A stretch of DNA of 63,597 bases from an uncultured virus (IMG/VR IMGVR_UViG_3300025087_000039) (taxonomy: Duplodnaviria > Heunggongvirae > Uroviricota > Caudoviricetes). The notes under the pieces were generated by a model. It was not told the origin of the DNA and searched no databases. It saw nothing but the letters and a program-made list of their open reading frames with translations. The stretch is taken from the IMG/VR virus record IMGVR_UViG_3300025087_000039, positions 62,001 through 125,597 of that record; one strand, given 5' to 3'. Every line of letters starts with the position of its first letter. Position 1 is the first letter of the stretch. This document shows, piece by piece, positions 4,801-36,427 of this stretch. Position numbers and translations under genes: made by a program.

Positions 4801-5977
4801 AGAAATTGGATCTTATATTAAAAAAGGTGATCCAATAATAAGAAAAACTGTTGGAGAGATAGAACAATTGATTGGGTTTGATAATATTGATGACGACGAT
4901 TCAAGTTTAATTTCTTCAGGACAATATATTAAAAAGAGTCCGGGTGGAAGAATAGTTGATATTGAGGTTTTGTCAAATCTTCCAAGTTCAAAGTTTCAAA
5001 AATTGAATGAATTAATTCAAAGAACTAATCAGAGATATGGAAAACCTGATAAACAAAATTTCACAATAAAAGGAAATCCTTTTAAAGGATTAATTATAAG
5101 ATTTAAAATTGAACAAGAATTGAATATAAATATCGGAGATAAATTATGTGGAAGATTTGGTAATAAAGGAATAGTTTCGTTAGTTGAAAAAAGAGAAAAT
5201 ATGCCAAGGACACCTTGGGGAGAAAGAGTTGAAATTATTATGAATCCTATTGGTGTCATTTCTCGAATGAATATTGGTCAAATGTACGAAATGTATTGTG
5301 GATTAATTTCTAAAAAACTATCTCAGGTGATTATCGAAAATCCCAAAAGAATAAATGTTTTAAATATTTTTGATAAGACATTGAGTTTATTAGATAATAC
5401 AAAAAATAAAAAATATACTGTTGATTTTATAAATAGAATAAAAAATCTTTCAGATCAAAATTATAATTTATTAATTGAGCAAATTAAAAAAGAGTCATTT
5501 GTTCCAATCATAGTTCCACCATTTAAATCACCAAATAAAGAACAGATAACAAAAGCCTTGAAATCTCTTGGCTTACAAGATTCTTATTATTTAACATTAC
5601 CTGAATATGGGACAAAAACAATTAAGCCAGTTCCCTTTGGATATAGTTATATTTATAAGTTAGAACATATTGGAGAAATGAAAGTTCACGTAAGAAGTAC
5701 AGGCCCCGTCGCTGGAAAAACATTACAACCTTTAGCTGGAAAGAAAAAGGAAGGTGGACAACGAGTTGGAGAGGGTGATACGTGGGCTTTACTGAGCTAC
5801 AATTGCCCCACTATTCTTTCAGAATTATTTGGGCCTCTTTCTGATGATCACGCTATGAAAAATGAAATGGTTTCAGATATAATTCAAACCGGTCAAACAA
5901 AATGGAAAGAATCAAAAACGAGTCCAACAAAAGATATTTTGAATAGTTATTTTATTTCTTTAATGCTCTCAAAGTGA
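1877..5977 (+). CDS. RNA polymerase beta-like subunit, set 1, with long N-terminal extension
   Basis: GAFRINGRKKCLINQ, RNIHPSYFGNIDPLDTPEGSNIG, GYNFEDG, GDKLCGRFGNKG, NPIGVISRMNIGQ, KLEH, QPLAGKKKEGGQRVGE. Confidence 0.95.
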   Translation: MLWIDKFRQYTQTTDVVRYKRSKIKPYLIVYFPENSMLIDDYKSLNISFTDMKNVVIPNTNFPRSRLYPEIQKAFRKYSLKSFQSVNYPPNEPLIFDLSYYLKAIDNSLKPGNYRQRGGLFIKNILLKTFSMFPSNYTKVFLYSINVNNEFPEYINRKFYPILEMLKNEEVFFDDLLFCILKDKPNYRLLVKEREYNLQRIIPYLRSLKYEETDLEEEKDEEIKDASEKVLNTVRKDEIPIQNTDKLKNIVKDYLKSNKKEVEKIFNKPDDKNIQKKIAVSSILQKINNNPLETKKIVKNIPIKRLNKAVHVIDKTYTDKILMREKTVSNSKDLVTKETNIPMLVDNKSPKHIFEKRKIDFEKNLKTDMINSFKVLERKEIPLKIEHLEIQDKPQRPGEVEKSDISIIKTILRDQLNNEHLIEMEIPRIDPNTGAFRINGRKKCLINQIVQDPITFPKPYDSKFESSYSSFHISSRRLKAGNYLEIYMASYKLPLLVLLSFSFGFENTLKRYGIEYEFVNAKTKKDLFITKISEDKFILFKNVDNELKKELVSSLIRADLSSLKINKPFPSKEFFNLVIIKLSGRINSTFLIQSNLENIVDPIVKEVLIDKQQPFILEDIIQYMTENVIKGTVIDRNDISNQRIRNSEIIVHLAQKQILMTYTQYKEQVLSGNKNAKFLLSPTKVLSEFLNSEIVTDMEYANPIEEMSTMTRVSPVGKKVGGIPDKMVVQVEARNIHPSYFGNIDPLDTPEGSNIGVVQHLTIDSQLTTTRGLFALKEINNEERSGILSTTAVMIPFVENNEGARIIMSVNQARQALPLKNPEPPIIQTGYESILSGVLSDNFVKKSPCNGKVEKVNKDEIHLRCEKGERKIISTIPVHLRSGSGKNTLSVFNHTVKSGDNVKKDEIISEGSCISKGSIALGRTLATCYMSYKGYNFEDGLVISEDLVESQKMVSLHGIIEDIFMSENDRLLYLAEIGSYIKKGDPIIRKTVGEIEQLIGFDNIDDDDSSLISSGQYIKKSPGGRIVDIEVLSNLPSSKFQKLNELIQRTNQRYGKPDKQNFTIKGNPFKGLIIRFKIEQELNINIGDKLCGRFGNKGIVSLVEKRENMPRTPWGERVEIIMNPIGVISRMNIGQMYEMYCGLISKKLSQVIIENPKRINVLNIFDKTLSLLDNTKNKKYTVDFINRIKNLSDQNYNLLIEQIKKESFVPIIVPPFKSPNKEQITKALKSLGLQDSYYLTLPEYGTKTIKPVPFGYSYIYKLEHIGEMKVHVRSTGPVAGKTLQPLAGKKKEGGQRVGEGDTWALLSYNCPTILSELFGPLSDDHAMKNEMVSDIIQTGQTKWKESKTSPTKDILNSYFISLMLSK

Positions 5978-14530: not shown

Positions 14531-14959
14531 ATGTATTATATAGAAAAGAAGTTTTCCATTCCAATTGGACATAGACTTTATTTGAATAAGAATCGGTGCC
14601 AAAACCCTCATGGCCACAATTTCTCAATATTGGTTGGGATTAAGTCTGAAGAAGTAAATAATGAAGGAATGGTCATGGATTTTACAGTGTTAAAAGAAAT
14701 TTGTAATAAAGTTTTGGATAAATTTGATCACGCTTTTATGTTAAATTCATTGGATGAGGAACTTATAGATTTGTATATAAGGCGAAATTTTAAGGTTATT
14801 GTATTTGATGGAGAACCCACAGCTGAAAATTTATCATGTAATCTGTATAATGAGATAGAATGGGCTTTGAAGAATTATCAATTTAGCAATAAAATATACA
14901 TGGACTATGTAACGGTATATGAAAATGAAAATTCAAAAGCGACTTATAGAGTTTCCTAA
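14531..14959 (+). CDS. queD: 6-carboxy-5,6,7,8-tetrahydropterin synthase (QueD/PTPS)
   Basis: GHRL..CQNPHGHNF, GMVMDF, FDH, PTAENL, VYEN. Confidence 0.92.
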   Translation: MYYIEKKFSIPIGHRLYLNKNRCQNPHGHNFSILVGIKSEEVNNEGMVMDFTVLKEICNKVLDKFDHAFMLNSLDEELIDLYIRRNFKVIVFDGEPTAENLSCNLYNEIEWALKNYQFSNKIYMDYVTVYENENSKATYRVS

Positions 14960-21572: not shown

Positions 21573-23919
21573 TTGGATCTATAAGTTAGATTCAAGAATA
21601 GTTATCGATAAAAATTTTGTGATAAAGGAATATGGTTATAAAAAAGATGATCTATTTTTAAAACTTGGAGATGTAAAATTTCCTGCTGCAAAATTTTCAA
21701 ATCAATTTATTAATAAAGATTCAGAAGATTTATTGATGTTACCTGGGGTTAGGTTTTTGAAAAAAATTTCTGGAAATCAATGGAAATTTTTATTTGAGGA
21801 ACCTCCTCAAATAAAAACAGTTTATGTTTCACCAGCATTGATTGATTATGAAAAAGGAATGATACAGAATCCAGAAATTGTTGAACTCTTTTTGAAAAAT
21901 ATTTATAAAATAAAGGGACGATATGCGGTTCGATTATCTTTTCCTTTTGTCATCTTTACTGGGGTAATTAGAAAAATAAAGGAAAATGTTTTTGACTCAA
22001 TGTCATTATCAGCTTACATTGCTCCAAGACAATTAAATAGTTTTGATGATAAATTATATTTGCCACCTTTGTCAAATATTATGTTTACTGGATCGGTATG
22101 TTGCCCGAGAACTTCTGGAGATACGATAGGGAGCACAATTTTAAATCAATTAAGAGTTTTTTGGGAATCTGAATTTAATACAGATTATTATAATGGAAGA
22201 AAATATACAAGTGAAAGTGGAAATGAGTTAGGAACAATTTTAGCTTGGAATTATAATACAAAGATTGATCCATTATTTATTTATGATAAAAAATTTGTCC
22301 AAGCGGATTCTTTGTTGAGTAATCTTTTTAATGGTGAAAATTTAATAACTGTTAAAACTCTTTTTGAAAGAATACAAAGTTCTTTTTCGAATATTGAATC
22401 AGATAATTTTTCTAGGATAGAAAGAACATTGACATATTTAGAAATTCAGAAAGATAATAATATTATCAGGTTGGATATTGGTGATGAGATTGTAATAGGG
22501 GATAAAGTTTTATATATTTTAAATATATTTTTAGAAAACAATATATCTGTTATAGATTATGACACAAATGAAACGAAAGAAATTAAATTAACAAAGAAAA
22601 TTTCTCATGATACTTATGATTATTATATTAAGAAAAAGTTTTTGATTAATAATTTAGAATTTTCTAGAGGAGATTTAATTCATATCACTTCTCCTATGAA
22701 TTATTTTGGATCGATTAATAGAATTGTCCAAAGGGCAGATGGAAGTCAATATTTAAAATTAGATAATAGTTATTTTAATTTTAATATCAAAAATTTAGTT
22801 TTTGAAAAATATCAAGATTCTAGTAAAGATTATTGTGGTGAGTCAATCAAATTAAATAAGAAATATTTTTATTTCAGGTCAGGTCATACTCCTTATGAAA
22901 TTGAATTGTCAGATATTTTTATAAAAGATGGAAATATAATGTATAAAACTTTAAGAGATGGATATAATAATAATAATACCATTATCCCAGATACAAAAAA
23001 TCTCGTTCCTATAGAAAAAGTTAAAACACACAAAGAAGAGTTTTTCTATAACGGAGCACAGATTTTTCATATAAGCGAATATTATAGTATCGATGATTAT
23101 AAGTTTGTAGATAACGGCTTCGACCTTTTTTTAGATTTTTCAAATGTTTTAAAAAATAATTCGATAAATATTTCTGGTAGAAAGAATTTTTCTTTTAAAG
23201 AGGGTGATCTTGTTATCGAAACAAGAAATACAAAATATAAAGTATATGAAATCAAAAAAATTACATCTTCAAGAAATAATAATTTAGAGGTCACTTATCA
23301 AGATGGTAAAATATCTCCTCTACTTATTTATAATACAAATGTTAATCCATTTATAAATAAATTTTATATGAAATACAATGAGTTATATAGCGGTATAGAA
23401 TTTAAAGCAATAAATAGTGATATTCCCGGTTTTGTAAAAAATAAAATATACAAATTAATAGGTTTTGTAGATGGATTTAAAAATATTCCACTGTGTTACA
23501 TGTCAAATGGAATGACTGTTTGGCCACACAATTTAATTCAATCTTTTAATGTCGTTTCAATAAATGAATTGAAAATTGAAGATTTAAATAGTCATGCAAT
23601 AGGAGAGAAATTTCCTAAAGTTGAAGGCCCAAAAGCAAGAGTCCCTCATTTGGACGGAGAAGTGTCCTTCAAATATATAAACGGAAGATTTACAGAAAAA
23701 ATTATAAATGGACAAATAAAATTGTACATGGGAGAAAAAAACTTTATTCCAAAAATAGATGAAGACGATTTAGATAATCAAATTTGTAGAGGAATAATTT
23801 TTCCAAGGTTGACTGGTGAAAAAAATGTATTTTTAAATCAAAATTACATAGAACATAATTTATTAGGGCTGATTCCGAATTATTTTATTCCTGAAGAGGT
23901 TTTAAAAGGAGCAGCTTAA
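21562..23919 (+). CDS. large protein with prokaryotic E2 family D (PRTRC protein B)-like domain, paralog 1
   Basis: LSFPFVIF..LYLPPLSNIMFTGSVCC..FWESEFN pattern; next to JAB, ThiF and Ubl genes. Confidence 0.7.
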   Translation: MENNWIYKLDSRIVIDKNFVIKEYGYKKDDLFLKLGDVKFPAAKFSNQFINKDSEDLLMLPGVRFLKKISGNQWKFLFEEPPQIKTVYVSPALIDYEKGMIQNPEIVELFLKNIYKIKGRYAVRLSFPFVIFTGVIRKIKENVFDSMSLSAYIAPRQLNSFDDKLYLPPLSNIMFTGSVCCPRTSGDTIGSTILNQLRVFWESEFNTDYYNGRKYTSESGNELGTILAWNYNTKIDPLFIYDKKFVQADSLLSNLFNGENLITVKTLFERIQSSFSNIESDNFSRIERTLTYLEIQKDNNIIRLDIGDEIVIGDKVLYILNIFLENNISVIDYDTNETKEIKLTKKISHDTYDYYIKKKFLINNLEFSRGDLIHITSPMNYFGSINRIVQRADGSQYLKLDNSYFNFNIKNLVFEKYQDSSKDYCGESIKLNKKYFYFRSGHTPYEIELSDIFIKDGNIMYKTLRDGYNNNNTIIPDTKNLVPIEKVKTHKEEFFYNGAQIFHISEYYSIDDYKFVDNGFDLFLDFSNVLKNNSINISGRKNFSFKEGDLVIETRNTKYKVYEIKKITSSRNNNLEVTYQDGKISPLLIYNTNVNPFINKFYMKYNELYSGIEFKAINSDIPGFVKNKIYKLIGFVDGFKNIPLCYMSNGMTVWPHNLIQSFNVVSINELKIEDLNSHAIGEKFPKVEGPKARVPHLDGEVSFKYINGRFTEKIINGQIKLYMGEKNFIPKIDEDDLDNQICRGIIFPRLTGEKNVFLNQNYIEHNLLGLIPNYFIPEEVLKGAA

Positions 23920-26363
23920 TGCTGAAAAAGCAGATTTTCATATGCGGAAATGAAGCTGGAATAAACTATTTAAACGGTACGACTATTTTTGCAAAAAAAT
24001 CATGGTTCTATCAACCAATAGCAGAAAAACCTTTTCAATTAACAAAAGAAATGTCAGAATTGGATTTTTATATTTCTGATTCTAATAAAAATAAATATAT
24101 TGTTTTTCATGATGAACCACAAAAAAGAACAATACGCCTTCATAGCTATTTAGTTCAGAGACATTTAGAAGAATTAAATGAAATAAATCCTGAAGGGTTT
24201 AAAACATTACGTGAAATAAAAAAGAATGAATTGATTGAACCGATGAACTTTTTTCTTTCGTTTCCTTATATTTATTTTGGAGCAAAATTATTTGAAGATG
24301 AAGGTGATATTCATGCTGAAAGGGTTTGTGCATTTGTCTCTAAAACTCCAATTAAATCTATGGAAGAAAAAGTATTTAGAGTTCCATTACCTAATATAGA
24401 GCCTAGTGGAAAAATTTGTATGGGAACAGGAATTAGAAGCAAAAATATTTCTGGACTTATAAAAACAATACGAACGGTATTTTGGACATCGACATTTAAT
24501 GATGATATTTTACAAAATGTTATTGCATATTCATCATATCCAACATTCAAAAACTTTTTTCAGTGGCAAATTCTAACAAAAAGCTCAGAAGAAAATATAG
24601 CTTTGAAATCTAAATATGTCCAAATTGGATCATTATATGATGCTTTAGTTTTTGGAAGATCTCAGAATAATCGACCGTCTGAGGAACCTGTAAGACGTCA
24701 AAGTTCTGAAGATTATAATTATAATAATTTTGAAGATTTATATCACTCAATTTTAAAAAAAATGGAACCTAAAAAGATTTCTTTATATGGCAAGGAATAT
24801 TATGTATATTCTACAAATTTTTACTATGGGGAGCCATTTTATTTATCAAAAAAGAAAAAAACATTTTTCTTAGCTTGTGTTCATGATAATAGAAGATTAT
24901 ATTTTATTTTAGAAAAAAATAAATATGGCAATACAGATCGTGAAAAATATTTTCTTATTAAACTTAGTGGTAAAAAGGATATGGATTTTTATATTAAAAA
25001 AAGAGGTATTCTTCATAAAAACACAGAAATTATAGTTGGGGGAATTCCATTTAAAAAAGATGATATGGTAAAAAATGAGAATCATATTAAAGATAATTTT
25101 TCTTTAATTTCAATGGTTTATACAGATTCTGATGGAAATAATGTTTATATAAAAGATAATTCTAATTTAACTTTTTTCATTAATAATGATAATACAATTA
25201 AAAAATTTATTCTAACAGATTGTTTTGATAAGCCAATAGATGGTAATAAAATATATTATAATCTTGATAATGTTCCTGGAACTAATTTATTAATTGGAGA
25301 TATGAGATTTTATGGGAGAGATTTGAAAGTTCAAAGTAATGGAAGCAATACATATCTTTCTTATAATAAAAATTTAATAGCAATAAAAAATATTATTTTA
25401 GCAGAGGATGTCGAAAAATTTACATGTATTGATAAGAAATTAGGTTTCATAGATAATCGTTCTAGAATATCTATGGGCGTAAATGTCTGTACATATGAGG
25501 ATGAAATATATTTAATAAAAAATACGTCAAGTTTTTGTCCCAATTTGAGAAAATTCTTTAAAGACGATAAAGTACAAATTGGTGGAATCACTGATTTTAA
25601 TTTACCTCTTAACGAAATATTCTTCTTTGGGCATGAATTTTTATTTGGAATTGATAGATTTAAGGAATATAGTTCTGAGTATATAACTGGACTTAAACAA
25701 AGACATGCCGTCATAGATTCAAATTGTAGTATTTTTAATCCTTTTATAAGGAAATTTTATACAAGTTATTTTAATTTACATACTGGAATGGTTATGAGAT
25801 ATATTTCAGGTTTGCCTAATTTTATAGAAAATGAAGAATATTGTATTTTAGGCTTTGTTGATGGTTTTATTGATATGGCCAAAAATATAAGAATTCCAGC
25901 CATTTTCATGTCAAATGGCGTTACGATATGGCCTCAAGATTTGATTAGATTTTTTCAATTTACAGAAAAGAAGAATGAAATTGATCTAGAGAAGTTTCAA
26001 TTCACTAATCATGTTCATTCGACTTTTCAAAAAGGAGATTTATTGTTTAAAAGATCAGCTTTTTATTTACATGATGATCAACCAGATTCAAATGAATTTG
26101 ATTGGTATAATTTCAATACTATTTGTGAATCGGCAATAGATTCAAAGATTAAAAGTATAAATTTATTTTTAAGACCAATTGTGTATCCAAGAGTTCCCTT
26201 AAATGAAGAAGGAACAAAAGATAGAGTTTTTATTGGACAAAGATGTATTACAAACTGTCCTAAAACTTTTGATTTAGAAGAAAAATATTTATATCCTTAT
26301 AAACCGGAATTTATAGATTCAAAAGTTCTTGATAAGTTTGTTTCGAAAAAGAAAGGAAAGTAA
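23919..26363 (+). CDS. large protein with prokaryotic E2 family D-like domain, paralog 2
   Basis: LSFPYIYF..VFRVPLPNIEPSGKICMG..FWTSTFN; shares GFVDGF..MSNG.T.WP..LI..F block with paralog 1. Confidence 0.75.
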   Translation: MLKKQIFICGNEAGINYLNGTTIFAKKSWFYQPIAEKPFQLTKEMSELDFYISDSNKNKYIVFHDEPQKRTIRLHSYLVQRHLEELNEINPEGFKTLREIKKNELIEPMNFFLSFPYIYFGAKLFEDEGDIHAERVCAFVSKTPIKSMEEKVFRVPLPNIEPSGKICMGTGIRSKNISGLIKTIRTVFWTSTFNDDILQNVIAYSSYPTFKNFFQWQILTKSSEENIALKSKYVQIGSLYDALVFGRSQNNRPSEEPVRRQSSEDYNYNNFEDLYHSILKKMEPKKISLYGKEYYVYSTNFYYGEPFYLSKKKKTFFLACVHDNRRLYFILEKNKYGNTDREKYFLIKLSGKKDMDFYIKKRGILHKNTEIIVGGIPFKKDDMVKNENHIKDNFSLISMVYTDSDGNNVYIKDNSNLTFFINNDNTIKKFILTDCFDKPIDGNKIYYNLDNVPGTNLLIGDMRFYGRDLKVQSNGSNTYLSYNKNLIAIKNIILAEDVEKFTCIDKKLGFIDNRSRISMGVNVCTYEDEIYLIKNTSSFCPNLRKFFKDDKVQIGGITDFNLPLNEIFFFGHEFLFGIDRFKEYSSEYITGLKQRHAVIDSNCSIFNPFIRKFYTSYFNLHTGMVMRYISGLPNFIENEEYCILGFVDGFIDMAKNIRIPAIFMSNGVTIWPQDLIRFFQFTEKKNEIDLEKFQFTNHVHSTFQKGDLLFKRSAFYLHDDQPDSNEFDWYNFNTICESAIDSKIKSINLFLRPIVYPRVPLNEEGTKDRVFIGQRCITNCPKTFDLEEKYLYPYKPEFIDSKVLDKFVSKKKGK

Positions 26364-27478
26364 TGTTCCCAATATATTTATACGATGATAAAAAACTAAT
26401 ACCAAAAGAAGACATTGCATATCTTATCGGAAAAAATGGAATTTTTATTAAAAAACATTCTCCTATCGTTGATGCTTTGGTTCCGGTCGATAAAATTTCT
26501 TGTCTGGAAGAAATCAAAAGTTATGGGGTAATAAACGTTCCAAAATTACCTAAAGAAATAGGGGGATTAACTTATAAATTTATGAAAAAAATGTATGAAA
26601 AATATCATTCAGAAAGTATTGTAATGCTTTTTTATTCTCCGGAAAAAGGGTTTAGATTATATTGTCCCTTTCAAAATATTTCATCTGCTTCAATTAAATA
26701 TTTAAAGCCTAAAACTTTTAGGGGGTATACATTAATTGGAACTATTCATAGTCATGCTGGATTTTCAGCATTTCATTCCGGAGTCGATGATTCAGATGAA
26801 TTTGGTTTTGATGGGTTACATGTCACTTTTGGAAATTTTAGTGATGAAAAAACTTTTACAATTTCTTGTAGTTGTGTGGTAAATGGAAAAAGGTTTATGT
26901 ATGATCCCAAAGATTATTTTGAGGGCTTAACGGTTATAAAGGAGTTTACAAAAACATGGGATTATCGCATCCAAGGATATAATACAACTCCTTCAAATAA
27001 ATTTATGTTTAAAGAAAAAGATTTAAAGAAAATTAATATTCCCACCTGTTGGGATCGAAGAATAAATCAGCCGAAAATTTCTCAACTTAAAGAAAATATT
27101 GGAGAACTTAAAGTAAATGATTTTCAATACAGTGGACGTTTTAGTGGGGCTTATAGAGAATTTTATGAAGGTTATGGAGATTATTTATTTGGAGCTGGTG
27201 GCTCCAATTATTATAAAAATTATGGGTTAATTGATTGGGCTGGAAAAACGCCAACCACCGATCAAAAATTACGACATGAAAATCAAAAGAAAATAAATGC
27301 ACTAACTGAGTTTTATAAAACTGAAGATTTTGAACCAAGTATGTTGGTCGATGAATTGATAGATAGAGGTCTTTGTTTTGAAATTGATAGGGATCAACTT
27401 GAAGCGGTTATCGATACATTTTTTAATGGAGAAATAGTTGAGGATGATGCTGAAGAAGGAGGTCTTGCTGTTTCATGA
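26363..27478 (+). CDS. JAB/JAMM metallo-isopeptidase (PRTRC protein A-like)
   Basis: YLIGKNGIF, catalytic E in HSESIV, JAMM motif GTIHSHAGFSAFHSGVDDSDE, GLHVTFG. Confidence 0.9.
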   Translation: MFPIYLYDDKKLIPKEDIAYLIGKNGIFIKKHSPIVDALVPVDKISCLEEIKSYGVINVPKLPKEIGGLTYKFMKKMYEKYHSESIVMLFYSPEKGFRLYCPFQNISSASIKYLKPKTFRGYTLIGTIHSHAGFSAFHSGVDDSDEFGFDGLHVTFGNFSDEKTFTISCSCVVNGKRFMYDPKDYFEGLTVIKEFTKTWDYRIQGYNTTPSNKFMFKEKDLKKINIPTCWDRRINQPKISQLKENIGELKVNDFQYSGRFSGAYREFYEGYGDYLFGAGGSNYYKNYGLIDWAGKTPTTDQKLRHENQKKINALTEFYKTEDFEPSMLVDELIDRGLCFEIDRDQLEAVIDTFFNGEIVEDDAEEGGLAVS

Positions 27479-28167
27479 ATATAAAAATTATAGGGTTGGG
27501 TGGAATAGGAACAGTTTTTTCTGAATTGGTAACGAGATATTTAACATATTCTGGAATTAATAATATTTCAATTTGTTTTATTGACGGTGATTCTTTTGAA
27601 AGAAAAAATTCTGAAAGACAAATTTTTCAAAATCTTGGGAATAAAGCAGAGATAAAATTTAGAGAAATTAATAATCCGATGGGAAGTATTAATTATACAT
27701 ATATTCCGGAATATATTAATGAAAATAATATCAACAGAATTATTTTTGAGGATGACATTGTATTTTTGTGTGTTGATAATCACGCAACAAGAAAATTAGT
27801 CTCAGATCATTGTGTATTGTTAAGGAACATAATATTAATATCTGGTGGCAATGAACTTTTGGATGGCAATGTTCAAATTTTTATTAGGAAAGATAACAAA
27901 AATATTACCCCAACCATAACTGATTATCATCCAGAGATCAATGAGCCATTGGATAAAAACCCCAATGATATGAGTTGCGAAGAATTATCAAGATTATCAG
28001 AACCCCAAATTTTCTTTACAAACGCTGGAGTCGCAATTTTTATGTGTTTTTCATTTTATAATATTTTAAATCAAAAAGATTTTAATGTTTCTGAAGTTTA
28101 TTTTGATATTCCGAAACTTGTGTCTGATTCAAAAATTAGGTCTCCATATGTCAGAAAGCATGCTTAA
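27475..28167 (+). CDS. ThiF/E1-like adenylating enzyme
   Basis: IIGLGGIG, IDGDSFERKNSERQ, CVDNHATR, SGGN, candidate catalytic Cys in MSCEE. Confidence 0.92.
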   Translation: MNIKIIGLGGIGTVFSELVTRYLTYSGINNISICFIDGDSFERKNSERQIFQNLGNKAEIKFREINNPMGSINYTYIPEYINENNINRIIFEDDIVFLCVDNHATRKLVSDHCVLLRNIILISGGNELLDGNVQIFIRKDNKNITPTITDYHPEINEPLDKNPNDMSCEELSRLSEPQIFFTNAGVAIFMCFSFYNILNQKDFNVSEVYFDIPKLVSDSKIRSPYVRKHA

Positions 28168-28252
28168 AAATTAAGTTTTTCGTTTTTTTACCTTCTGTTT
28201 TCCTCGCAGCAAAAACAAAACCACGAAGTACCACAAGAAAGGGTCTCACACC

Positions 28253-28690
28253 ATGTATACCGCCGAACAGCTGTCCGCCATGACCGTTCGTGAACTCCGT
28301 GACATCTGCGTCAGCCGTGGGATCACCGGGATGTCCAAGCGCCGGAAGGATGAGATCATCAGCGCCATCCTGGCCAACACCCGGAACGACGAAGCGGGTC
28401 AGCCTGGCCCCACCGCAATCCGTGGGCTCCAGTATGACGCGACCAGCACCCGGGTGTCCGGTGGGAACCAGATCACAACGACCATCCGGGTCACCTCCGG
28501 TGCAAGCTCGGGGAACTACCCCGTCGTCGGGAAGACCGTGGGCGAGGTTTCTCGCTTCCTGGCGGAAGCCCTCAACATCGACCGGATGGCCCAGGGTATC
28601 GTGAACGGTGACGTGAAGGACGACAACTACGTTCTCCAGGCCAACGACTCCCTCGAGTTCCTGAAGCCTGCCGGACGGAAGGGTTTCTAA
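28253..28690 (+). CDS. Rho-N-terminal-like domain fused to ubiquitin-like (beta-grasp) protein
   Basis: N-term LSAMTVRELRDIC..GITGMSKRRKDEIISAIL (Rho_N-like); C-term GKTVGEV..LNI..VNG..DDNYVL..DSLEFLKPAGRKGF; about 63% GC. Confidence 0.85.
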   Translation: MYTAEQLSAMTVRELRDICVSRGITGMSKRRKDEIISAILANTRNDEAGQPGPTAIRGLQYDATSTRVSGGNQITTTIRVTSGASSGNYPVVGKTVGEVSRFLAEALNIDRMAQGIVNGDVKDDNYVLQANDSLEFLKPAGRKGF

Positions 28691-28700
28691 ACCATCTAAC

Positions 28701-28732
28701 CATGAGGGGGGCTTCGGCCCCCCTCATGTTTT
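28701..28732 (+). terminator. intrinsic terminator with C(UUCG)G loop
   Basis: perfect 12 bp stem CATGAGGGGGGC-TTCG-GCCCCCCTCATG followed by TTTT. Confidence 0.9.
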
Positions 28733-28746
28733 AAAAGGGAATAAAA

Positions 28747-29385
28747 ATGACATTTTTTATTTTTTCTATTGTGGTGTTGTTTATGGCAGCGTTTTTACTT
28801 AAAATCCTAAAATTGAAGAAAAATAATAATATTATAGAAGCTGATTATATTGTAGAAGATTCATTAAATTTATGGGAAAAGTATTTTAGTAAAAGAATTG
28901 TATATGTTTTTAGGAAAAATTTTTTAGGTAAATTTATGACAATATGTCTTTTTCTTGATAGCGAAGGTAATGTTTTGTCCAGGGGTATTTCAATTTGTTC
29001 CTTAGATGATAATATGACAAATTATGGAGGAATTTCATTATCTGCGTCTAGAGCGTATAATGCGTTTATCACCACAAAAAATTCAGAAAGAATAATTCCA
29101 AGAAAAATGAAAAATTATACAAGAAGATATAATTTTAAAACAATTGAAGAAAGAGATATTTTTATAAAAGATATTGAACTAGAATTGGAAAGACTTTTAT
29201 TACCTCATGAATATTCTTTAAAAATAAGAAACTTAACTTTACATCTGACGATTCCTAAAAGTTATTTACTATTTTTTGCTAAACAATATTATGAATATAA
29301 ATCTGAATATCAACCTTTATTTTTAACGGAAGAAGAAAAACAAGAAATCAACAAAAGGATTGAAAAAGAAAGATTGAAAAAATGA
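28747..29385 (+). CDS. hypothetical protein with N-terminal hydrophobic segment
   Basis: MTFFIFSIVVLFMAAFLL; SRGISICS motif. Confidence 0.65.
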   Translation: MTFFIFSIVVLFMAAFLLKILKLKKNNNIIEADYIVEDSLNLWEKYFSKRIVYVFRKNFLGKFMTICLFLDSEGNVLSRGISICSLDDNMTNYGGISLSASRAYNAFITTKNSERIIPRKMKNYTRRYNFKTIEERDIFIKDIELELERLLLPHEYSLKIRNLTLHLTIPKSYLLFFAKQYYEYKSEYQPLFLTEEEKQEINKRIEKERLKK

Positions 29386-30269
29386 TTATTCGTGAAATAT
29401 GTATAATTGGAACCGGAACGTTCGGGAGTCATTTATCAATCAAATTTTCAGAGGCTAAAGAAATAAAAAAATTAATACTTATTGATTATGATTTAGTAAA
29501 TGAAAATGATATTTTAAAGGGTGATTTTACCACGTTAGGAAAAAGAAAAGTTTTTGATTTATCTGAAAGAATAGAAAAAACAAGGGGCTATGAATTTATA
29601 AAGCCCATTGATTCGAAGAACGGATTTGATTTTTCAAAAATACTTAGATATAGTTATGAAAATTTATTAATTATTGATTGTACTGATGTATTAAATAATA
29701 AAAATCAATCAGATATAAAAAGTTATATTTCTGGAAGAAAAGTTATTTTAGATTGCAGAAAAAATTTGAATTATAGCAATGGATTTGAAGGAAGATATTT
29801 TGAAGATTTATCAAAATATGAATTAGAACAAGCGGCAATTTTAGCAAGAAATACAATTCTTAATAAATCTTTTGAAAATATTTTGACTAAGGAATTAGTT
29901 CAAATTTTAGATATTCCTAGAATAGATAATTATCTTCAAAAGACTTTAAAAAATGAATCTGAAAAAGATGATTTAATAGTTCAAAACGATGGAAATTTAG
30001 AAAGATTTTATAATTTTTCAAGTTCAGTAAAACCGATCATAGAAAAGAATAAGAGGCAAGATATAGATTTTTATCTAGATTCTAAGTTTTCTACCTTCCC
30101 AATTAAAACTACATGTTTAAAAGAAAGACTACAAACTCCTTTAGATCTTTGTGAATTATTAAAAACCTTTTCTAGTTTTCCAACTGTTAAATATAATTAT
30201 ATTATTAACATCGTAGATGAAGGGAATGATTTTTATGTGGAATTAATAAGAGAATCGGGAGCAGCATGA
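29382..30269 (+). CDS. divergent ThiF/E1-like protein
   Basis: IIGTGTFGS, LILIDYDLVNENDI, GKRKV, IIDCTD; lacks the canonical N-L-x-R-Q. Confidence 0.72.
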   Translation: MIIREICIIGTGTFGSHLSIKFSEAKEIKKLILIDYDLVNENDILKGDFTTLGKRKVFDLSERIEKTRGYEFIKPIDSKNGFDFSKILRYSYENLLIIDCTDVLNNKNQSDIKSYISGRKVILDCRKNLNYSNGFEGRYFEDLSKYELEQAAILARNTILNKSFENILTKELVQILDIPRIDNYLQKTLKNESEKDDLIVQNDGNLERFYNFSSSVKPIIEKNKRQDIDFYLDSKFSTFPIKTTCLKERLQTPLDLCELLKTFSSFPTVKYNYIINIVDEGNDFYVELIRESGAA

Positions 30270-30700
30270 ATGATATCATCCTTCAAAATGGAGCGATAGT
30301 TATAAACAAAGATTCTAAAATAAAAATTGAGAAGATAAATAAAAAAATTATTCCTTCTTATTTTATTTTGAATAATGAATATTTTAAAATATTAGAAATA
30401 GATTTGCCATATATTATTAATGGTTATTATGTTAGGGTGATAGATCAAAGAATTCTATCAATTATTTTATGTGGTGTTCATCCGAACGCTGATTTATATT
30501 CTGGTTTATTATGTTTACCTAAGCCTTTTATTGGAAAACATTTTAACGAAAAATTTTTAAACATAATAGAGAATCGGTTTATTTCAATACATAATTTGGA
30601 TAATAGTTATTTTATAGATAAAGCTATTTATCTTAAATATGAAAAGGTAACACACAAACCAAAAATATATATTGTGGAGGATCAATGCCCAAACTCTTAG
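30266..30700 (+). CDS. putative E2/UBC-like protein
   Basis: HPNADLYSGLLCLP matches the HPN-x-G-x-x-C-L E2 active-site signature; in Ubl locus. Confidence 0.55.
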   Translation: MNDIILQNGAIVINKDSKIKIEKINKKIIPSYFILNNEYFKILEIDLPYIINGYYVRVIDQRILSIILCGVHPNADLYSGLLCLPKPFIGKHFNEKFLNIIENRFISIHNLDNSYFIDKAIYLKYEKVTHKPKIYIVEDQCPNS

Positions 30701-33411
30701 ATATTTCTAAGTTTTGTGAAAATCTTCCAGAGGTAACTACATTTGAGATTATTGATAAGAAAAAATTTCATCCAAATGGCCTTTTTTCAGAACAACTTTT
30801 TGGACCAATAAGAAATTATACATGTCAATGTAAAATTTATAGGGGCGTTTCAAAATCCGGAGGAAAATGTAATATTTGTAATGTTGACATAGTTAATAGT
30901 AATGTAAGAAGAAGAAGATTTGGAAAAATTGTTTTGCCTTTTCCAATTGTAAATCCAATGTTTTTTGAACTATTAAGTTTTGTTGGCGGAAAGAAAGTTA
31001 AAGAAATGATTTCTATGTTAATGAAAAATGATAAAAGTATTTTATATAAAGATGATAATGGAGAATTTGTTATAACCACAGATATTGAAAGCATCCCTAA
31101 AGAAAAAATATTTTTTGAAAAAACTGAGGCAATAAAAGAATTTATTACACAAATTACAAAAGAGATTTTAAAGGATGAAGAAAATCCAGAATTAAGTTAT
31201 TGGAATATAATAAAAGAAAATTTAAATAATATTTTAATAAACGAAGTAATTGTTTTACCTCCAGATTTAAGACCCCCATCAAAAACTACGGTAAAAAATG
31301 TTCCTGTCGCAGATCCAATAAATAGATTTTATGTTCAACTTTTAACAAATAAAAAGATCATTGAAAACACTTTGGTCGAAGTTCAAAAAAATAAAAAGAT
31401 ATATTATATGTATTTTAAAGAAATTCAAAAAACTGTAAATCAACTTTATGTTTTTATATTGGAAAAACTTTCTAAAAAAGAAGGATTGATAAGAGGAAAT
31501 ATTTTAGGAAAAAGAATTGATTTTTCAGGGAGAGCCGTAATAGTCCCATCTCCAACTATTAATATTGACGAATGTGTTTTACCCTATGTTATGATTTTAG
31601 AATTATTTAAAATTCAAATTGCACAAAAATTAGTGAATAATGAAAGTTTTAAAATTCTCAACGAGGCAATAGATTTTGTTGATAGATGCATTGATCTTAA
31701 AAGTTTGGATTTATATAAAGAAGCTGAAGAAATTGTAAAGGGTGAAGTTTGTATTTTAAATAGGCAACCCACGCTTCATAGATTAGGAATGCTTGGTTTC
31801 AAAATTAAAATATCCTCAGATAATGTTATAAAAATTCACCCTTTAGCATGTGAGCCATTTAATGCTGATTTTGATGGGGATCAGATGGCGGTATATTTAC
31901 CAATATCTCAAGAGGCAAAAGATGAAGTTCTTGATAAGTTATTGATAACAAATAATTTAAACAGTCCATCAAATGGACAATTAGCGACTATGCCAAATCA
32001 AGATATAATTTTGGGAATTTATATGTTAACAAATGATAAATTTCCTGATTTAACAAAAGAAACTATTTTTAAAAATATTAAAATCACAGAAGGAAGAAAA
32101 TTATTCAATGAGTGTTTTCCAGAAGACTATCCTATAATAAATTACTCTGTAGGCAAAAATGAATTATTAAAAATCTTAAGTGATATTTCACAAAATTATT
32201 CTAAAGAAATATTAGCCATAGTTTTAGATAAGATCAAATTATTGGGATTTAAATATTCAACAATTTTCGGAACCACTATGTCTTTAATTGATTGTACATC
32301 AAAAGATTCTAAGGAATATGTAGATAAAATATTTTCAGGAGAAAATATAAGAAAACAAATCGAAGATATATCTTCAAATGAAACTATAGAAACTTTAAAG
32401 AAAATATTTAAATATTCTTATATGGTTGAATCTGGAGCCAGAGGAACTTGGGACCAAGTTAGACAAATTGTTTTATCAAGAGGGTTTATCTCAAATTTTG
32501 AAGGACAAATTTTACCTGAACCAATTAAAAATAGTTTAATGAATGGGTTAACCAAAAGAGAATTTTTTATATCCACATATGGATGTCGAAAAGGTTTATT
32601 AGACGTTGCATTAAATACTGGAATCTCAGGCTATCTTTCAAGAAAGTTGATTTTTACCTGTTGTAATCTTCAACTTGATTTAAATTTAGAAGATTGTGGA
32701 ACTAAAGATTGTATAGAACTTTTTATTGAAAATGCAGATAAAAGTAAATCTTTAATAGGCAGAAATTATATAGAGAATAATGAATTGAAAAAAATTACAA
32801 TGTTAAATTTTAAAAGTTTAGTTGGAAAAACTTTAAAACTACGAAGTCCTATTTATTGTGAATCTGAAAATATTTGTAAAACTTGTTATGGAGATTTATA
32901 CAAAATTATCAATAGTAAATTTATTGGCGTAGTTGCGGCTCAGTGTCTTGGTGAAAGAGGAACTCAATTAGTTTTAAGAACTTTCCATACTTCTGGGTCT
33001 GCTATAATTAATGAAAAATCTGAAGAAAAAATTGATGAGATGAAACAGATGGATATTATTGGGGATTTAGAAACCGCTTCTGATTTATTACATAGATTTA
33101 AAGATAATAATTTTATGAATTCTTTAAATAATTTATTTAAAGTATATTCCTCTTCTGGAAAAATACATCATGTTCATTTTGAATGTGTGATTTCTCAGTT
33201 AATGTGGCATGGAATGAAAAAATGGAGATTAACCAAAGATCGTGATAAAAAATCTTTAGAAATGAAAAGTGTCCAATCGGTTCCCAGTTATGAAAGTTGG
33301 CTTTTAGCTTTAGCTTTTTCTAATCCAAAAAAGAGCATATTAAATGGAATGGTATATAAAGGTTTATATACTGGAATTATGGACCGAATATTAAAAGGGG
33401 AAAAAGTTTAA
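30685..33411 (+). CDS. RNA polymerase beta'-like subunit, set 2 (unsplit, compact)
   Basis: GLFSEQLFGP, CQC..CNIC, PPDLRP, LGKRIDFSGRAVI, LNRQPTLHRLG, catalytic NADFDGDQ, SGARG, RTFHTSG. Confidence 0.97.
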   Translation: MPKLLDISKFCENLPEVTTFEIIDKKKFHPNGLFSEQLFGPIRNYTCQCKIYRGVSKSGGKCNICNVDIVNSNVRRRRFGKIVLPFPIVNPMFFELLSFVGGKKVKEMISMLMKNDKSILYKDDNGEFVITTDIESIPKEKIFFEKTEAIKEFITQITKEILKDEENPELSYWNIIKENLNNILINEVIVLPPDLRPPSKTTVKNVPVADPINRFYVQLLTNKKIIENTLVEVQKNKKIYYMYFKEIQKTVNQLYVFILEKLSKKEGLIRGNILGKRIDFSGRAVIVPSPTINIDECVLPYVMILELFKIQIAQKLVNNESFKILNEAIDFVDRCIDLKSLDLYKEAEEIVKGEVCILNRQPTLHRLGMLGFKIKISSDNVIKIHPLACEPFNADFDGDQMAVYLPISQEAKDEVLDKLLITNNLNSPSNGQLATMPNQDIILGIYMLTNDKFPDLTKETIFKNIKITEGRKLFNECFPEDYPIINYSVGKNELLKILSDISQNYSKEILAIVLDKIKLLGFKYSTIFGTTMSLIDCTSKDSKEYVDKIFSGENIRKQIEDISSNETIETLKKIFKYSYMVESGARGTWDQVRQIVLSRGFISNFEGQILPEPIKNSLMNGLTKREFFISTYGCRKGLLDVALNTGISGYLSRKLIFTCCNLQLDLNLEDCGTKDCIELFIENADKSKSLIGRNYIENNELKKITMLNFKSLVGKTLKLRSPIYCESENICKTCYGDLYKIINSKFIGVVAAQCLGERGTQLVLRTFHTSGSAIINEKSEEKIDEMKQMDIIGDLETASDLLHRFKDNNFMNSLNNLFKVYSSSGKIHHVHFECVISQLMWHGMKKWRLTKDRDKKSLEMKSVQSVPSYESWLLALAFSNPKKSILNGMVYKGLYTGIMDRILKGEKV

Positions 33412-33418
33412 TTTTTTC

Positions 33419-36400
33419 ATGGAGGATTCAATGATTCGAAATCCTTTTTATGAGATTGACGATCCTGTAAATAATATGTTTTCAATCAGAAAAAATGAAT
33501 ATGATGAAATACTTAGCAAGGTTAATATAATTTTACAACCTGCTAGAGATCTTGATTTTATTGTCGAAGAATTGGATTTTTATGATCATAAATTTACTTC
33601 TGGTGAACTTCATAGAACATTGAGACGAAATTTGATTATCAAATTGAAGAAAAGAAATTCAACGATTGATTTAAGTATGTCTGTTCCAAAATTAATTGAT
33701 AATAATTATTTTTATATTAACGGTCGAAAGAAAATGCCTTTATTTCAAATGTTCGATTTACCTGTTGTGACAAGAGGAAAAATTATTAAATTAAGAACTT
33801 GTGTTTCTACATTAATGTTAATAAATGAAAAAACAGAGCCTTTTATAAAAGCATCTTTTTTGGGTAAAAAAGTCCCTTTAGTTTTATTGATGGCATGCTA
33901 TTTTTCTGAAAAAGAGTTGGAAGAAAGAAAACAAAAACTTTTAGGTATGAAAGAGCATAATGTTTTTTCAGAAAATTTATTAAAAGATATTGAGGAATTT
34001 CAGGTTGAAAATGAAGGAATTGAAGAAGAATTTTTGATGGAAATGTTAGGGCGGCATTACACAAAATATAATATTAAATCAAAAGGTTATGATGTTATAT
34101 ATGCTCTTGATATAATTCCAAAAGTTGATATTATGTCTTCCCAATTCTTCAGAACTGAAAATGTTTTAGATGAAATTCTTTATCCTTTAATTAATGGATT
34201 TTATAATGATTTAGATTTAAGAAATAAAAGAATAAGATGTTTTGAATATGTTGTTTTAGAAAAGGTTGCTAAAGCCGTTTTTGATTTATGCGTTACAAAT
34301 AGAACAACACGAAATCCAAATTTCAATATTAATACTAGCCATATAATTTCTGAATGTAATGTTTCAGATATTGTTCAATTTGATTTTGCGATAAATCCAA
34401 TTGAAGAATTAACCAGTTTATCAAGAACCAGTTTAGTTGGGCCTGGTGGTTTTAAGAGAGAAAATGTTCCAAGGGGGTTGAGAGATATAAATGACTCTAT
34501 GTATAATCGAATCTGTCCTGTTGATACCCCAGATAGAGAAAATTGTGGAGTTTTACAAAATCTTCTAATAAATACAAAATTAGATAATAATTTAAGATTT
34601 TCAGAAGAGAGAAGCAATCAACCAATTTCTATCCCAGTATCATTTGTCCCATTTCTTGAAAGAGATGACCAGACGAGATTGCAAATGGCATCATCACAAA
34701 TGAGACAAACAATTCTTTTAAAAAATAATGATTCACAATTAATCAAAACAGGTTGTGAAGGATTATATACCGATAAAACTCAATTTGTAAAAACTGCAAA
34801 AAATAAAGGAACTGTAATTTATTTGGATCAAAAGATTTTAATTGTAAAATATGAGGATGAAACGCCTGACTTTTTTGAGGTTGGCCATAGAGAAATATAT
34901 GTAAAAAATTTAGACATTTATAAAGTTTATGTGAAAGTTGGAGATACATTTAATAAAGGAGATATTTTAGCGGAGAGTTTATTTTGTAGAAATGGTGAAA
35001 TAAATTTTGGAAAAAATCTTCTGACCGGAGTTATGGTTTATTATGGATATAATTATGAAGACGGCATTGTAATTTCAGATCGATTGATAAAAGATGATTC
35101 ATTTACCTCAGTTCATTTTAAAGATTTATCTTTTAATATTCCATCAAATAAAGTTCTTTTATCTTTAGAAAAAAATTCATATAAACCTCTTCCAGAAAAA
35201 TTTGAAAGAATTTATAAAGGGCAAGCATATGCCAAAACTAAAAGTATTTTATCTGGAACTGAATTTACTAGTGTTTTTGAAGAAGTGGAAGAACAAACTA
35301 CAGATAAAAATGTTATAATCACAGACCTCAATTTATATATAAATGATTGGAACAAAGAAATTCCAGAATATTCAAGATGGGTTGAAACCGTTAAAAATGA
35401 ACAGATACGAAATGAAGATATTTTTAGAGAATCTCTAAAAGATCATTTTGAAAAAAGAGATATTGAAGATATTATTAGAGATAATTTTCTAAATAAATTT
35501 TCTCAGGCTGGAAGATATAAAATTAAGGGAGAAAGAATAAGCGGTATACTTGTTGAAATGTCAGGAATATTTTTTAGAAAAATCCAGGTTGGAGATAAGA
35601 TAGCTAACAGACATGGAAATAAAGGGGTTATCTCAGCAATAATTCCTGAAGAAAAAATGCCTGTTTTGGAAGATGGAAGACATTTAGATATCTGTATAAA
35701 TCCTCTTGGAATAATTTCCAGAATGAATATTGGACAATTATTTGAACTTCATTTGGGGATGGCAGTTAATACCCTTAAAATGAAATCTTTAGAGATGTTA
35801 AAAAATTCAGAACCTCAGGAAAAAATAAAGGAATTTTTAATTGAGTTTATTAAAATAATTGATAGAACAGAAGGCAATTGGTATACAAAACAATTTATTG
35901 AAAATTTTCCAGAAAATATTGAAAAAGAATTTTTAGAGAATTTTTCAGTTCATCAGCCACCTTTTGAGTCAACAGATATGAAGGGAATTGAAGACGCTTT
36001 AAAATATACAAATGAGAATTTTAAGTATAAGGTTTTTGATCCAATTTCTAAGATGGATATTTTAAATGAGGTTGCAGTAGGGTTTTTAACTTTTTTTAGA
36101 ATTGCACATATTGCTGAAGATAAGCTCGCCGCCAGAGGAATCGGCTCATATACAAAGAAAACTCTTCAACCGTTAGGTGGAAGAAAGAATAAAGGCGGAC
36201 AAAGATGTGGTGAAATGGAGTCCGCTAGTTTGATTGGGTACGAAGCGAGCACAAATCTTTTTGAGATGTTTACCACAAAATCTGATTGTATAGATTTAAA
36301 AAATCAACATATTAAAAATAGTATTAGAAATACTGGAATGACGATGTTTGATGAAGAAATAAATATTTCCCCTGAATCTGTAAATCTCTTATATTCATAT

Positions 36401-36427
36401 TTAAAGGCAATCGGAATAGAGCCGTGA
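33419..36427 (+). CDS. RNA polymerase beta-like subunit, set 2
   Basis: FYINGRKK, GPGG, RICPVDTPD, GYNYEDG, GDKIANRHGNKG, SRMNIGQ, QPLGGRKNKGGQRCGEME. Confidence 0.96.
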   Translation: MEDSMIRNPFYEIDDPVNNMFSIRKNEYDEILSKVNIILQPARDLDFIVEELDFYDHKFTSGELHRTLRRNLIIKLKKRNSTIDLSMSVPKLIDNNYFYINGRKKMPLFQMFDLPVVTRGKIIKLRTCVSTLMLINEKTEPFIKASFLGKKVPLVLLMACYFSEKELEERKQKLLGMKEHNVFSENLLKDIEEFQVENEGIEEEFLMEMLGRHYTKYNIKSKGYDVIYALDIIPKVDIMSSQFFRTENVLDEILYPLINGFYNDLDLRNKRIRCFEYVVLEKVAKAVFDLCVTNRTTRNPNFNINTSHIISECNVSDIVQFDFAINPIEELTSLSRTSLVGPGGFKRENVPRGLRDINDSMYNRICPVDTPDRENCGVLQNLLINTKLDNNLRFSEERSNQPISIPVSFVPFLERDDQTRLQMASSQMRQTILLKNNDSQLIKTGCEGLYTDKTQFVKTAKNKGTVIYLDQKILIVKYEDETPDFFEVGHREIYVKNLDIYKVYVKVGDTFNKGDILAESLFCRNGEINFGKNLLTGVMVYYGYNYEDGIVISDRLIKDDSFTSVHFKDLSFNIPSNKVLLSLEKNSYKPLPEKFERIYKGQAYAKTKSILSGTEFTSVFEEVEEQTTDKNVIITDLNLYINDWNKEIPEYSRWVETVKNEQIRNEDIFRESLKDHFEKRDIEDIIRDNFLNKFSQAGRYKIKGERISGILVEMSGIFFRKIQVGDKIANRHGNKGVISAIIPEEKMPVLEDGRHLDICINPLGIISRMNIGQLFELHLGMAVNTLKMKSLEMLKNSEPQEKIKEFLIEFIKIIDRTEGNWYTKQFIENFPENIEKEFLENFSVHQPPFESTDMKGIEDALKYTNENFKYKVFDPISKMDILNEVAVGFLTFFRIAHIAEDKLAARGIGSYTKKTLQPLGGRKNKGGQRCGEMESASLIGYEASTNLFEMFTTKSDCIDLKNQHIKNSIRNTGMTMFDEEINISPESVNLLYSYLKAIGIEP

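Follow-up and report, generated by a model that had tools for sequence, protein, structure and literature searches.

The Ubl gene and its composition island

We analysed a stretch of 63,597 nucleotides from an uncultured, very AT-rich huge groundwater phage of the Caudoviricetes (positions 62,001 to 125,597 of IMG/VR record IMGVR_UViG_3300025087_000039), referred to below as the window, in which a small gene for a putative ubiquitin-like protein (Ubl) differs sharply in composition from its surroundings. This gene (28253..28690, plus strand) encodes 145 amino acids, arranged as a Rho_N/SAP-like N-terminal domain, a linker and a probable ThiS/MoaD-like beta-grasp domain, and it follows genes for an E2-like protein, a JAB/JAMM peptidase and an E1-like adenylating enzyme. 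Its content of guanine plus cytosine (G+C) is 62%, in a window with 27.5% G+C as a whole.

The G+C island had been described in an initial annotation from the letters alone, with counts of 38, 36 and 41 G+C in the 60-mers starting at 28261, 28321 and 28381. These counts are exact, and the maximal-scoring G+C segment of the window runs from 28221 to 28725 with 61.8% G+C (z = 10.1 against 2,474 other 505-nt windows; mean 0.273, standard deviation (sd) 0.034, maximum 0.386). Atypical composition of this kind is what is looked for in a recently transferred genomic island. The G+C fraction is 0.277 in the E1 gene, 0.306 in the JAB gene, 0.258 in the E2-like gene and 0.238 in the gene downstream of Ubl. 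Within the Ubl open reading frame (ORF), it is 0.59, 0.47 and 0.81 at the first, second and third codon positions (GC1, GC2 and GC3). The G/C-rich third positions, also pointed out before, contrast with a GC3 of 0.09-0.28 in the other 61 ORFs of at least 100 amino acids in the window, where ORFs were called crudely as the longest frames starting with ATG, with overlaps pruned.

The borders lie where they had been placed, near the ATG and at a terminator: the climb in G+C starts about 30 nt 5' of the Ubl ATG and the 3' limit is a hairpin with a UUCG loop. The spacer between E1 and Ubl together with the 5' leader (28168..28252, plus strand) has 38% G+C overall; its last 40 nt, C- and A-rich, reach 45% compared with 28% (sd 9) in the upstream sequences of 155 ORFs, and AAAGGG is found 9 nt 5' of the ATG. 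In the window this is the sole such island. The earlier statement that the shift is confined to the Ubl gene must be relaxed for the whole record of 125.6 kb, where this codon usage is shared by two other genes.

The codon dialect of Ubl favours the purine-ending codons AAG, GAG and CAG, uses CGG for Arg and is accompanied by Lys-to-Arg replacements. Its four-fold degenerate sites carry C at 0.46, G at 0.30, T at 0.19 and A at 0.05. The coding sequence (CDS) does not fold better than shuffled versions of itself (z -0.77), thus RNA structure is not what requires the high G+C. RNA genes were rejected as an origin of the island: neither tRNA nor tmRNA genes turned up anywhere in the 125.6-kb record, the window included, and a search with Rfam was negative for the window at gathering scores and for the first 13 kb of the record at E <= 0.01.

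In the case of the encoded protein, the N-terminal part matches Rho_N (PF07498) with 37.8 bits at a cut-off of 24.9, and the same profile is matched by 26/26 family members. The N-terminal domain of the structural model superimposes on Rho 1a62 with Z 9.2 and a root mean square deviation of 1.2 A over 47 residues, so that profile and fold both identify a Rho_N/SAP-type helix-extended-helix domain. For the C-terminal part, Pfam ThiS is matched by 22/26 family members at E <= 1 (best 6.4e-5) and TGS by 17/26; this Ubl itself scores 12.8 bits against ThiS, below the cut-off of 22.5. In the model (predicted confidence, pLDDT, of 80), residues 62-138 are ordered as strand-strand-helix-strand-strand. 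Fold searches with the whole two-domain model placed the C-terminal part with TrkA-C/RCK_C and ribosomal proteins (Z about 5) and had no beta-grasp entry among the rows shown; Foldseek with the whole model returned nothing at E <= 0.001. A beta-grasp fold of this domain is likely rather than settled.

The protein ends in LEFLKPAGRKG followed by one extra Phe (Phe145). Across 26 Ubl sequences LEFLKPAGxKG is kept, with G141, K143 and G144 invariant; 19/26 end at that Gly, and 7/26, including this phage, have one or two further residues. The exposed or exposable C-terminal Gly of ubiquitin-like modifiers is therefore present, and linkage to E1, E2 and JAB genes is found here and in the related loci L002-L012. 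We infer that the Ubl protein would be conjugated to targets.

The hairpin that closes the island (28701..28732, plus strand) has a 12-bp stem and reads CAUGAGGGGGGC-UUCG-GCCCCCCUCAUG at 28701-28728, followed by UUUU at 28729-32; its 5' arm is also written CATGAGGGGGGC. It folds with -27.5 kcal/mol (z -4.4; 0/200 shuffles fold as well) and was labelled terminator-like by the consensus scan, in agreement with the perfect UUCG terminator of the initial annotation. The G+C-rich stem-loop and U tract of an intrinsic terminator are both there, the tract consisting of only four U, and the element reads as a putative intrinsic terminator or 3' mRNA stabiliser.

Comparable structures were found throughout the family. 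Some of our locus sets hold duplicate records, and counts given as distinct are deduplicated. In the 70 nt after the gene, the minimum free energy was -20 kcal/mol or lower for 94/117 distinct Ubl genes and for 20/300 control genes of the same loci, with medians of -23.9 and -7.8 kcal/mol. G-run/C-run stems followed 34/117 Ubl genes and 20/936 controls, and UUCG-type loops 11/117 and 2/936. Because such hairpins are common across the family, the UUCG terminator has long belonged to the locus and was not brought in by foreign DNA.

The initial annotation had named a chimeric assembly at the island borders as what would refute its interpretation, that is, a GC-rich piece of another organism joined into the phage contig. 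The abrupt shift in composition would fit such a join, as would the contigs of the low-depth run X8, which halt at 28195 and restart at 28605. However, a 91,544-nt Logan contig (run X2) and a 49,409-nt contig (run X4), from runs that are possibly source samples of this record, each span 26500-30500 and thus both borders with 0 differences. An X8 contig, from another study, crosses the 3' border (28605-29399), also with 0 differences; the 5' border is not crossed there. All eight cassette proteins are present at 100% identity on a separate 265,532-nt metagenome contig, the identical Ubl protein is recorded on 11 contigs, and the supposed insert is the expected orthologue in the expected slot and reading frame. 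Contig cover is absent at 28196-28604 in X8 and at 28065-29167 in X10, and we draw no inference from either gap. The runs listed for the stretch include no RNA run. As this check uses contigs and not raw reads, it is strong and not final evidence, and we regard a chimera as extremely improbable.

The enrichment of Ubl in G+C is shared by the relatives, of which the best 80 of 214 metagenome and the best 80 of 301 IMG/VR loci were seen. Ubl is richer in G+C than its flanks in 91/91 other loci (not deduplicated), the excess being +0.124 on average (sd 0.036, maximum 0.25) in relatives and +0.36 here. Flank G+C ranges over 24-41% in all the loci seen (24-41% in the 92 loci of the first sets, 25-40% in the 49 of the second). 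Ubl GC3 spans 0.09 to 0.81 across the family; it is the highest of the neighbourhood in 44/61 loci and ranks first or second in 55/61, duplicates and this phage included. A sample chosen through the RNA polymerase beta' gene, and so independent of Ubl, gave the top GC3 to Ubl in 33/49 distinct genes and in 25/37 newly seen ones. When 61 distinct Ubl genes were pooled and compared with their neighbours, C at pyrimidine-ending (NNY) codons was 0.36 versus 0.20 and G at purine-ending (NNR) codons 0.34 versus 0.23. At four-fold sites A was 0.28 versus 0.43, C 0.20 versus 0.09 and T 0.41 versus 0.40.

Two huge phages with loci of 34% G+C, L253 (4920-5381) and L248 (4903-5373), have Ubl genes of 55-57% G+C with GC3 of 0.62-0.65 and four-fold sites with C at 0.42-0.52 and G at 0.22-0.27. 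Their islands are sharp, single-gene and limited to the CDS and a G-run/C-run hairpin. These two bridge the family norm and this phage. Altogether, the earlier idea that Ubl is under different pressure from its enzymes agrees with the data: a shift at silent sites is seen in Ubl and is missing from E1, JAB and E2-like, a contrast that is repeated family-wide.

The cassette, its neighbourhood and two further G+C-rich genes

The E2-like gene (23919..26363, plus strand, 814 amino acids) encodes a UBC-type PNI...GKIC motif and matches Prok-E2_D at 2.5e-5, with 24.5 bits against a cut-off of 25; Cys167 in this motif (PNI..GKIC) is invariant in 63/63 distinct relatives. The JAB/JAMM peptidase (26363..27478, plus strand, 371 amino acids) comes similarly close to its cut-off (Prok-JAB 2.9e-5, 24.4 bits versus 25). 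Its residues 129-142, HSHAGFSAFHSGVD, fit HxHx7SxxD, a motif retained in 96/96 distinct relatives. The peptidase is likely a deconjugase and would likely also trim the terminal Phe of Ubl. The E1-like enzyme of the ThiF family (27475..28167, plus strand, 230 amino acids, GC3 0.20) matches ThiF at 3.3e-20 and the MoeB/ThiF and PRTRC_ThiF models below their cut-offs, and has a GLGGIG loop at residue 7.

On the 3' side, three conserved genes (28747..30700, plus strand) separate the Ubl gene from an RNA polymerase beta' gene. They encode an unknown protein of 212 amino acids, a second ThiF-like protein of 295 and an unknown protein of 144, and show synteny in L002-L007; the 212-aa gene, directly 3' of Ubl, is present here and in L002. 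The second ThiF-like gene (29382-30269, plus strand), two genes 3' of Ubl, is more divergent: thiF_fam2 matches its N-terminal part only (3.7e-7), other ThiF-type matches are weak, and identity in relatives is 24-31%. The multisubunit RNA polymerase beta'-like gene (30685..33411, plus strand), an ORF with NADFDGDQ, is the conserved downstream anchor of the cassette, with 53-62% identity in relatives and 301 relatives in IMG/VR. The order E2-like, JAB, E1, Ubl, second ThiF-like, 144-aa gene and RNA polymerase beta' is repeated in L002-L007, and L008-L012 have the part from E2-like to Ubl.

RNA polymerase beta/beta'-like genes occur in two separate sets in the window (148-5974 and 30685-36424), and the Ubl cassette lies directly 5' of the second set in every relative checked. 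Two such sets resemble the situation in phages that have both a virion and a non-virion polymerase. The 125.6-kb record, 40% complete by CheckV, carries phage genes for RNA polymerase, topoisomerase, helicase, ligase and similar functions. A gene at 53568-54761 (plus strand) matches phrog_1211 (1.5e-61), annotated as adenylosuccinate synthetase of the aminoadenine pathway, and is presumably PurZ-type; a QueD-like gene lies at 14531-14956 (plus strand, 1.9e-26). The two hint at phage DNA with modified bases, which could bear on composition.

The two other genes with the codon usage of Ubl lie in the record outside the window. One is a 5'-open ORF at the 5' end of the record (G000:C1:3-587, locus L013) for the C-terminal half of a ribosomal-protein-S1-like protein, with about 60% G+C and GC3 0.84. 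Two S1 domains (1.3e-31) were identified in it, rpsA models match it at 2.7e-54, and among bacteria its best relatives, with 42-57% identity, all belong to the Desulfobacterota / Thermodesulfobacteriota. The S1 gene may be a clue to the host, and its place at the very end of the contig makes a host junction possible. Huge phages with rpS1-like genes are on record in the available part of PMC7162821. The other is an orphan gene for 290-297 amino acids with one predicted membrane helix (G000:C1:10282-11175, L013; GC3 0.78), with no homologue except itself among 5.8 billion clusters.

No homologue of the S1 gene or of the 290-aa gene was found in G001, the complete relative, or among the loci of the family, and IMG/VR gave only three weak loci for the former and none for the latter. 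Given the missing homologues of the latter and the long terminal branch of the former (0.84 versus a bacterial median of 0.058), neither looks freshly captured. Both are followed by structured non-coding DNA without an Rfam match: G000:C1:588-1160 after the S1 gene (45-58% G+C, z -5.2 on either strand) and about 565 nt at G000:C1:11176-11740 after the 290-aa gene (-244.6 kcal/mol, z -9.4 versus shuffles). No blastn or tblastx match to these stretches was found in 80 bacterial rpsA loci.

Origin and maintenance of the bias

With moderate confidence, we favour the explanation that selection keeps a gene-specific G+C-rich coding of Ubl, which would be a family trait that is extreme in this phage. 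It builds on what was observed directly: the composition and borders of the island, the orthology and synteny of the gene, a bias and a hairpin shared across the family, and the enzymes' catalytic motifs. Accepting it, Ubl would be the last gene of a vertically inherited unit of E2-like, JAB, E1 and Ubl, closed by a very stable hairpin, and a mild family-wide G+C richness would have been driven to an extreme in this lineage. The purpose would most likely be to uncouple the output of Ubl from that of its three enzymes, one Ubl molecule presumably being consumed per conjugation. Ubl would be translated from a G+C-rich stretch of mRNA with the hairpin at its end, using codons and tRNAs distinct from those of the AT-rich rest of the genome. 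Selection rather than mutation bias would maintain the bias, and it would probably act through expression.

Recent capture of Ubl from a host system, or a swap with one, was one of two explanations offered by the initial annotation and is not supported. Identity to relatives is 40-52% for Ubl and 47-53% for E1. In FastTree trees of 32 distinct loci (supports 0.34-0.99), E1 and Ubl both group this phage with L018, L020, L021, L023, L062 and L002, and its terminal branches are 0.74 for E1, 0.68 for Ubl and 0.61 for RNA polymerase. Every locus with flanks has an orthologue in the corresponding position, and with the two trees concordant the incongruence of a transferred island was not seen. Among 5.8 billion clusters the best Ubl homologue is 56% identical, and blastn and tblastn against 50,697 phage records gave no match by DNA or protein. 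No close donor was identified in the phage records, the 5.8 billion clusters or 401 genomes of the phylum indicated by the S1 gene, where beta-grasp-only Ubl homologues occur in 5 genomes (35-42% identity) and Rho_N-only matches in 7. Altogether, the syntenic slot, the E1-like identity and tree position and the distant bacterial homologues, which lack Rho_N, argue that the Ubl gene is the phage's own, orthologous and syntenic. The family-wide G-run/C-run hairpin, with a UUCG loop in some lineages, argues against capture as well.

The bacterial Ubl-like proteins (L196:1420-1764, minus strand, and L197-L200) are small, with about 100-134 amino acids, match the beta-grasp half of the phage Ubl only and have a similar C-terminal motif, LEFVRLAGEKG in L196. 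Within the short loci fetched, no E1, E2 or JAB matches were found near them. Over 77 loci the E1 and Ubl scores gave a rho of -0.24; the relatives are about equally distant, and no inference was drawn from this value. A scan for a GC-rich family member through P0013 (high Arg/Lys) gave one ordinary relative.

Several observations weigh against the selective explanation. At NNR sites this Ubl has G at 0.79, compared with 0.34 in the pooled relatives, and so differs in kind and not only in degree. CGG makes up 6/12 of its Arg codons, and its R/(R+K) ratio of 0.67 is among the highest in the family (range 0.12-0.72). Taken together, this is the pattern expected from long residence in a GC-rich genome. 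Moreover, GC3 in the 125.6-kb record is bimodal, with three genes at 0.78-0.84 and all others no higher than about 0.33. In relative synonymous codon usage (RSCU), the S1, 290-aa and Ubl genes correlate with each other (r 0.67-0.80) and not with the background (-0.14 to -0.27). Given this bimodality and the one common dialect, import from a single donor fits as well.

The major head genes are a further point, as their GC3 and that of Ubl do not track each other in six genomes. Head, Ubl and background values are 0.47, 0.41 and 0.30 (sd 0.07) in G001; 0.29, 0.65 and 0.30 in G409, the genome of L253; 0.16, 0.22 and 0.19 in G411; 0.20, 0.26 and 0.18 in G412; 0.23, 0.18 and 0.16 in G410; and 0.22, 0.15 and 0.20 in G413. 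With the head gene of G409 at background next to a Ubl of 0.65, a plain argument from abundance is weak. Furthermore, G/C-ending codons may be translated fast or slowly in the host, and the nearest RNA polymerase beta' relative found in a dedicated search, at 59% identity, is too distant for dating.

As a rival explanation, xenologous replacement would have swapped the resident Ubl for a homologue from an unsampled GC-rich family member or a host-resident element, the incoming gene having not yet drifted to the composition of the phage. The CGG codons, the NNR preference and the Arg excess would then reflect G+C pressure beyond silent sites, and the bimodal GC3 would go with a dialect common to two accessory genes that are not in the complete relative G001. 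It would also fit that the island borders are sharp and close to the gene, that the spacer between E1 and Ubl is 85 nt here and about 35-50 nt between the matches in L002-L012, and that RSCU correlates with GC-rich Desulfobacterota loci, with r up to 0.94 when the three islands are pooled and of 0.84-0.86 when Ubl is taken alone. Yet nothing closer than the 56% homologue turned up among the clusters, no GC-rich member was seen among the flanks surveyed, and the few bacterial homologues are distant and without Rho_N. The Ubl and E1 genes agree in tree position and branch length, hairpins of this type are ancestral, and neither flanking repeats nor mobility genes were found at the islands, where only chance matches of 11-15 nt connect one GC-rich island with another. 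The family-wide bias and its intermediates would, in addition, require a separate explanation. We therefore consider replacement unlikely. GC-biased gene conversion offers a neutral route, in which Ubl would be a hot spot for recombination among co-infecting relatives, with biased repair turning A/T into G/C at all its sites and no benefit involved. The rise of G+C at all three codon positions, the preference for Arg over Lys, the continuum across the family and borders that match a small exchangeable module between the conserved E1 end and the hairpin are all compatible with it. However, in the pooled relatives T at four-fold sites is steady while A falls and C doubles, and C exceeds G throughout. 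Both patterns are strand- and codon-specific, unlike a symmetric shift from A/T to G/C, and the E1 and Ubl trees, congruent at the available resolution, give no sign of frequent exchange, which leaves gene conversion improbable.

Ordinary translational selection, by which a highly abundant Ubl would use host-preferred codons like capsid genes do in a GC-rich host, is the closest to the other explanation of the initial annotation, codon adaptation of an abundant protein. Part of this stands. In G001 head and Ubl genes are both above the genome mean, the pooled family shows the classic signature of C-ending codons up and A-ending codons down, and the S1 gene has its nearest relatives in the Desulfobacterota, of which many are GC-rich. 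Phage structural genes do lean to host-preferred codons, according to the available part of PMC2266997. What does not stand is the sharing of the shift by capsid and other abundant genes, which had been proposed as a check: the head gene is at background in G409 and at or below it in G411 and G413. In this phage, whose GC3 scan covers the 125.6-kb record with the head gene lying outside it, a virion structural protein (1215-1874) has a GC3 of 0.20, and there is no gradient, as no gene falls between about 0.33 and 0.78. Abundance of the ordinary kind thus has a low probability as the cause.

Beyond selection on Ubl alone, we tentatively put forward a wider idea, which is possible rather than probable: the huge phages of this family might hold a second, G/C-ending dialect for very few genes as a deliberate expression control. 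Here, these would be Ubl, the S1-domain protein and the orphan membrane protein, decoded by tRNAs that the AT-rich bulk hardly uses. Their translation could be independent of, or timed against, a tRNA pool reshaped by the phage or by host defences. If so, Ubl GC3, with its range of 0.09 to 0.81, would track the host of each phage.

A sharp G+C island is usually taken as foreign. Here it is orthologous and syntenic, so that composition alone misleads phage and metagenome annotation. The graded bias of one gene in about 100 related phages is a system in which a codon dialect can be studied against an opposing mutation bias. It is suited to asking whether codon choice lets phages regulate how much of one protein is made, or when, separately from its operon partners. 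The locus itself is an unstudied phage cassette of E1, E2, JAB and Ubl with a nucleic-acid-binding type of Ubl, beside phage RNA polymerase genes. Full-text literature searches, excluding supplements, returned no such cassette with a Rho_N-Ubl and no GC-rich Ubl gene in an AT-rich phage. The available part of a jumbo-phage review (PMC7824862) has no JAB or ThiF and two unrelated occurrences of 'ubiquitin'.

Comparison with known systems

The closest parallel by gene content is the bacterial Bil operon, in which, according to the available part of PMC11601603, BilA is the Ubl, BilB the E2, BilC the JAB and BilD the E1. By that description, the two systems have in common a Ubl with a variable N-terminal domain and a single beta-grasp domain (a probable one in the phage), an E2 catalytic Cys, a JAB with HxHx7SxxD and a ThiF-type E1. 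Unlike Bil, the phage cassette lies in a huge phage beside RNA polymerase genes and not in a bacterial defence island, the N-terminus of its Ubl is Rho_N, its E2-like protein has 814 amino acids and a second ThiF-like gene follows; codon bias does not appear in the available part of that account. The PADLOC Bil models had no match for Ubl, E2-like or JAB, and E1 matched BilD only with E 0.0017 and 15.2 bits, which does not place the cassette among Bil systems. In the case of the PRTRC cassette of plasmids and integrative elements, TIGR03735 PRTRC_A is the best named NCBIfam relative of the JAB protein (2.5e-9) and TIGR03736 PRTRC_ThiF is among the best NCBIfam matches of E1 (5.2e-12). Their scores of 37 and 45.6 are far below the curated cut-offs of 101.8 and 144.75, respectively, and so do not assign the cassette to PRTRC either.

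With genomic islands and phage morons, the Ubl gene has in common a sharp single-gene shift in composition and a terminator of its own. It differs from them by an orthologue in a conserved slot, a congruent tree and a graded bias in relatives, and neither a donor nor a mobility signature was found for it.

In T4, codon classes are linked to the time of expression. More generally, genes of one phage differ in their synonymous codons, as here, and this has been read as translation selection; host-preferred codons were described for phage head and tail genes (PMC2266997, as far as its available part goes). The present case differs from such codon heterogeneity in that the capsid gene is unshifted, as seen in the relative G409, and that the bias belongs to one small non-structural gene, with a GC3 of 0.81 versus about 0.17.

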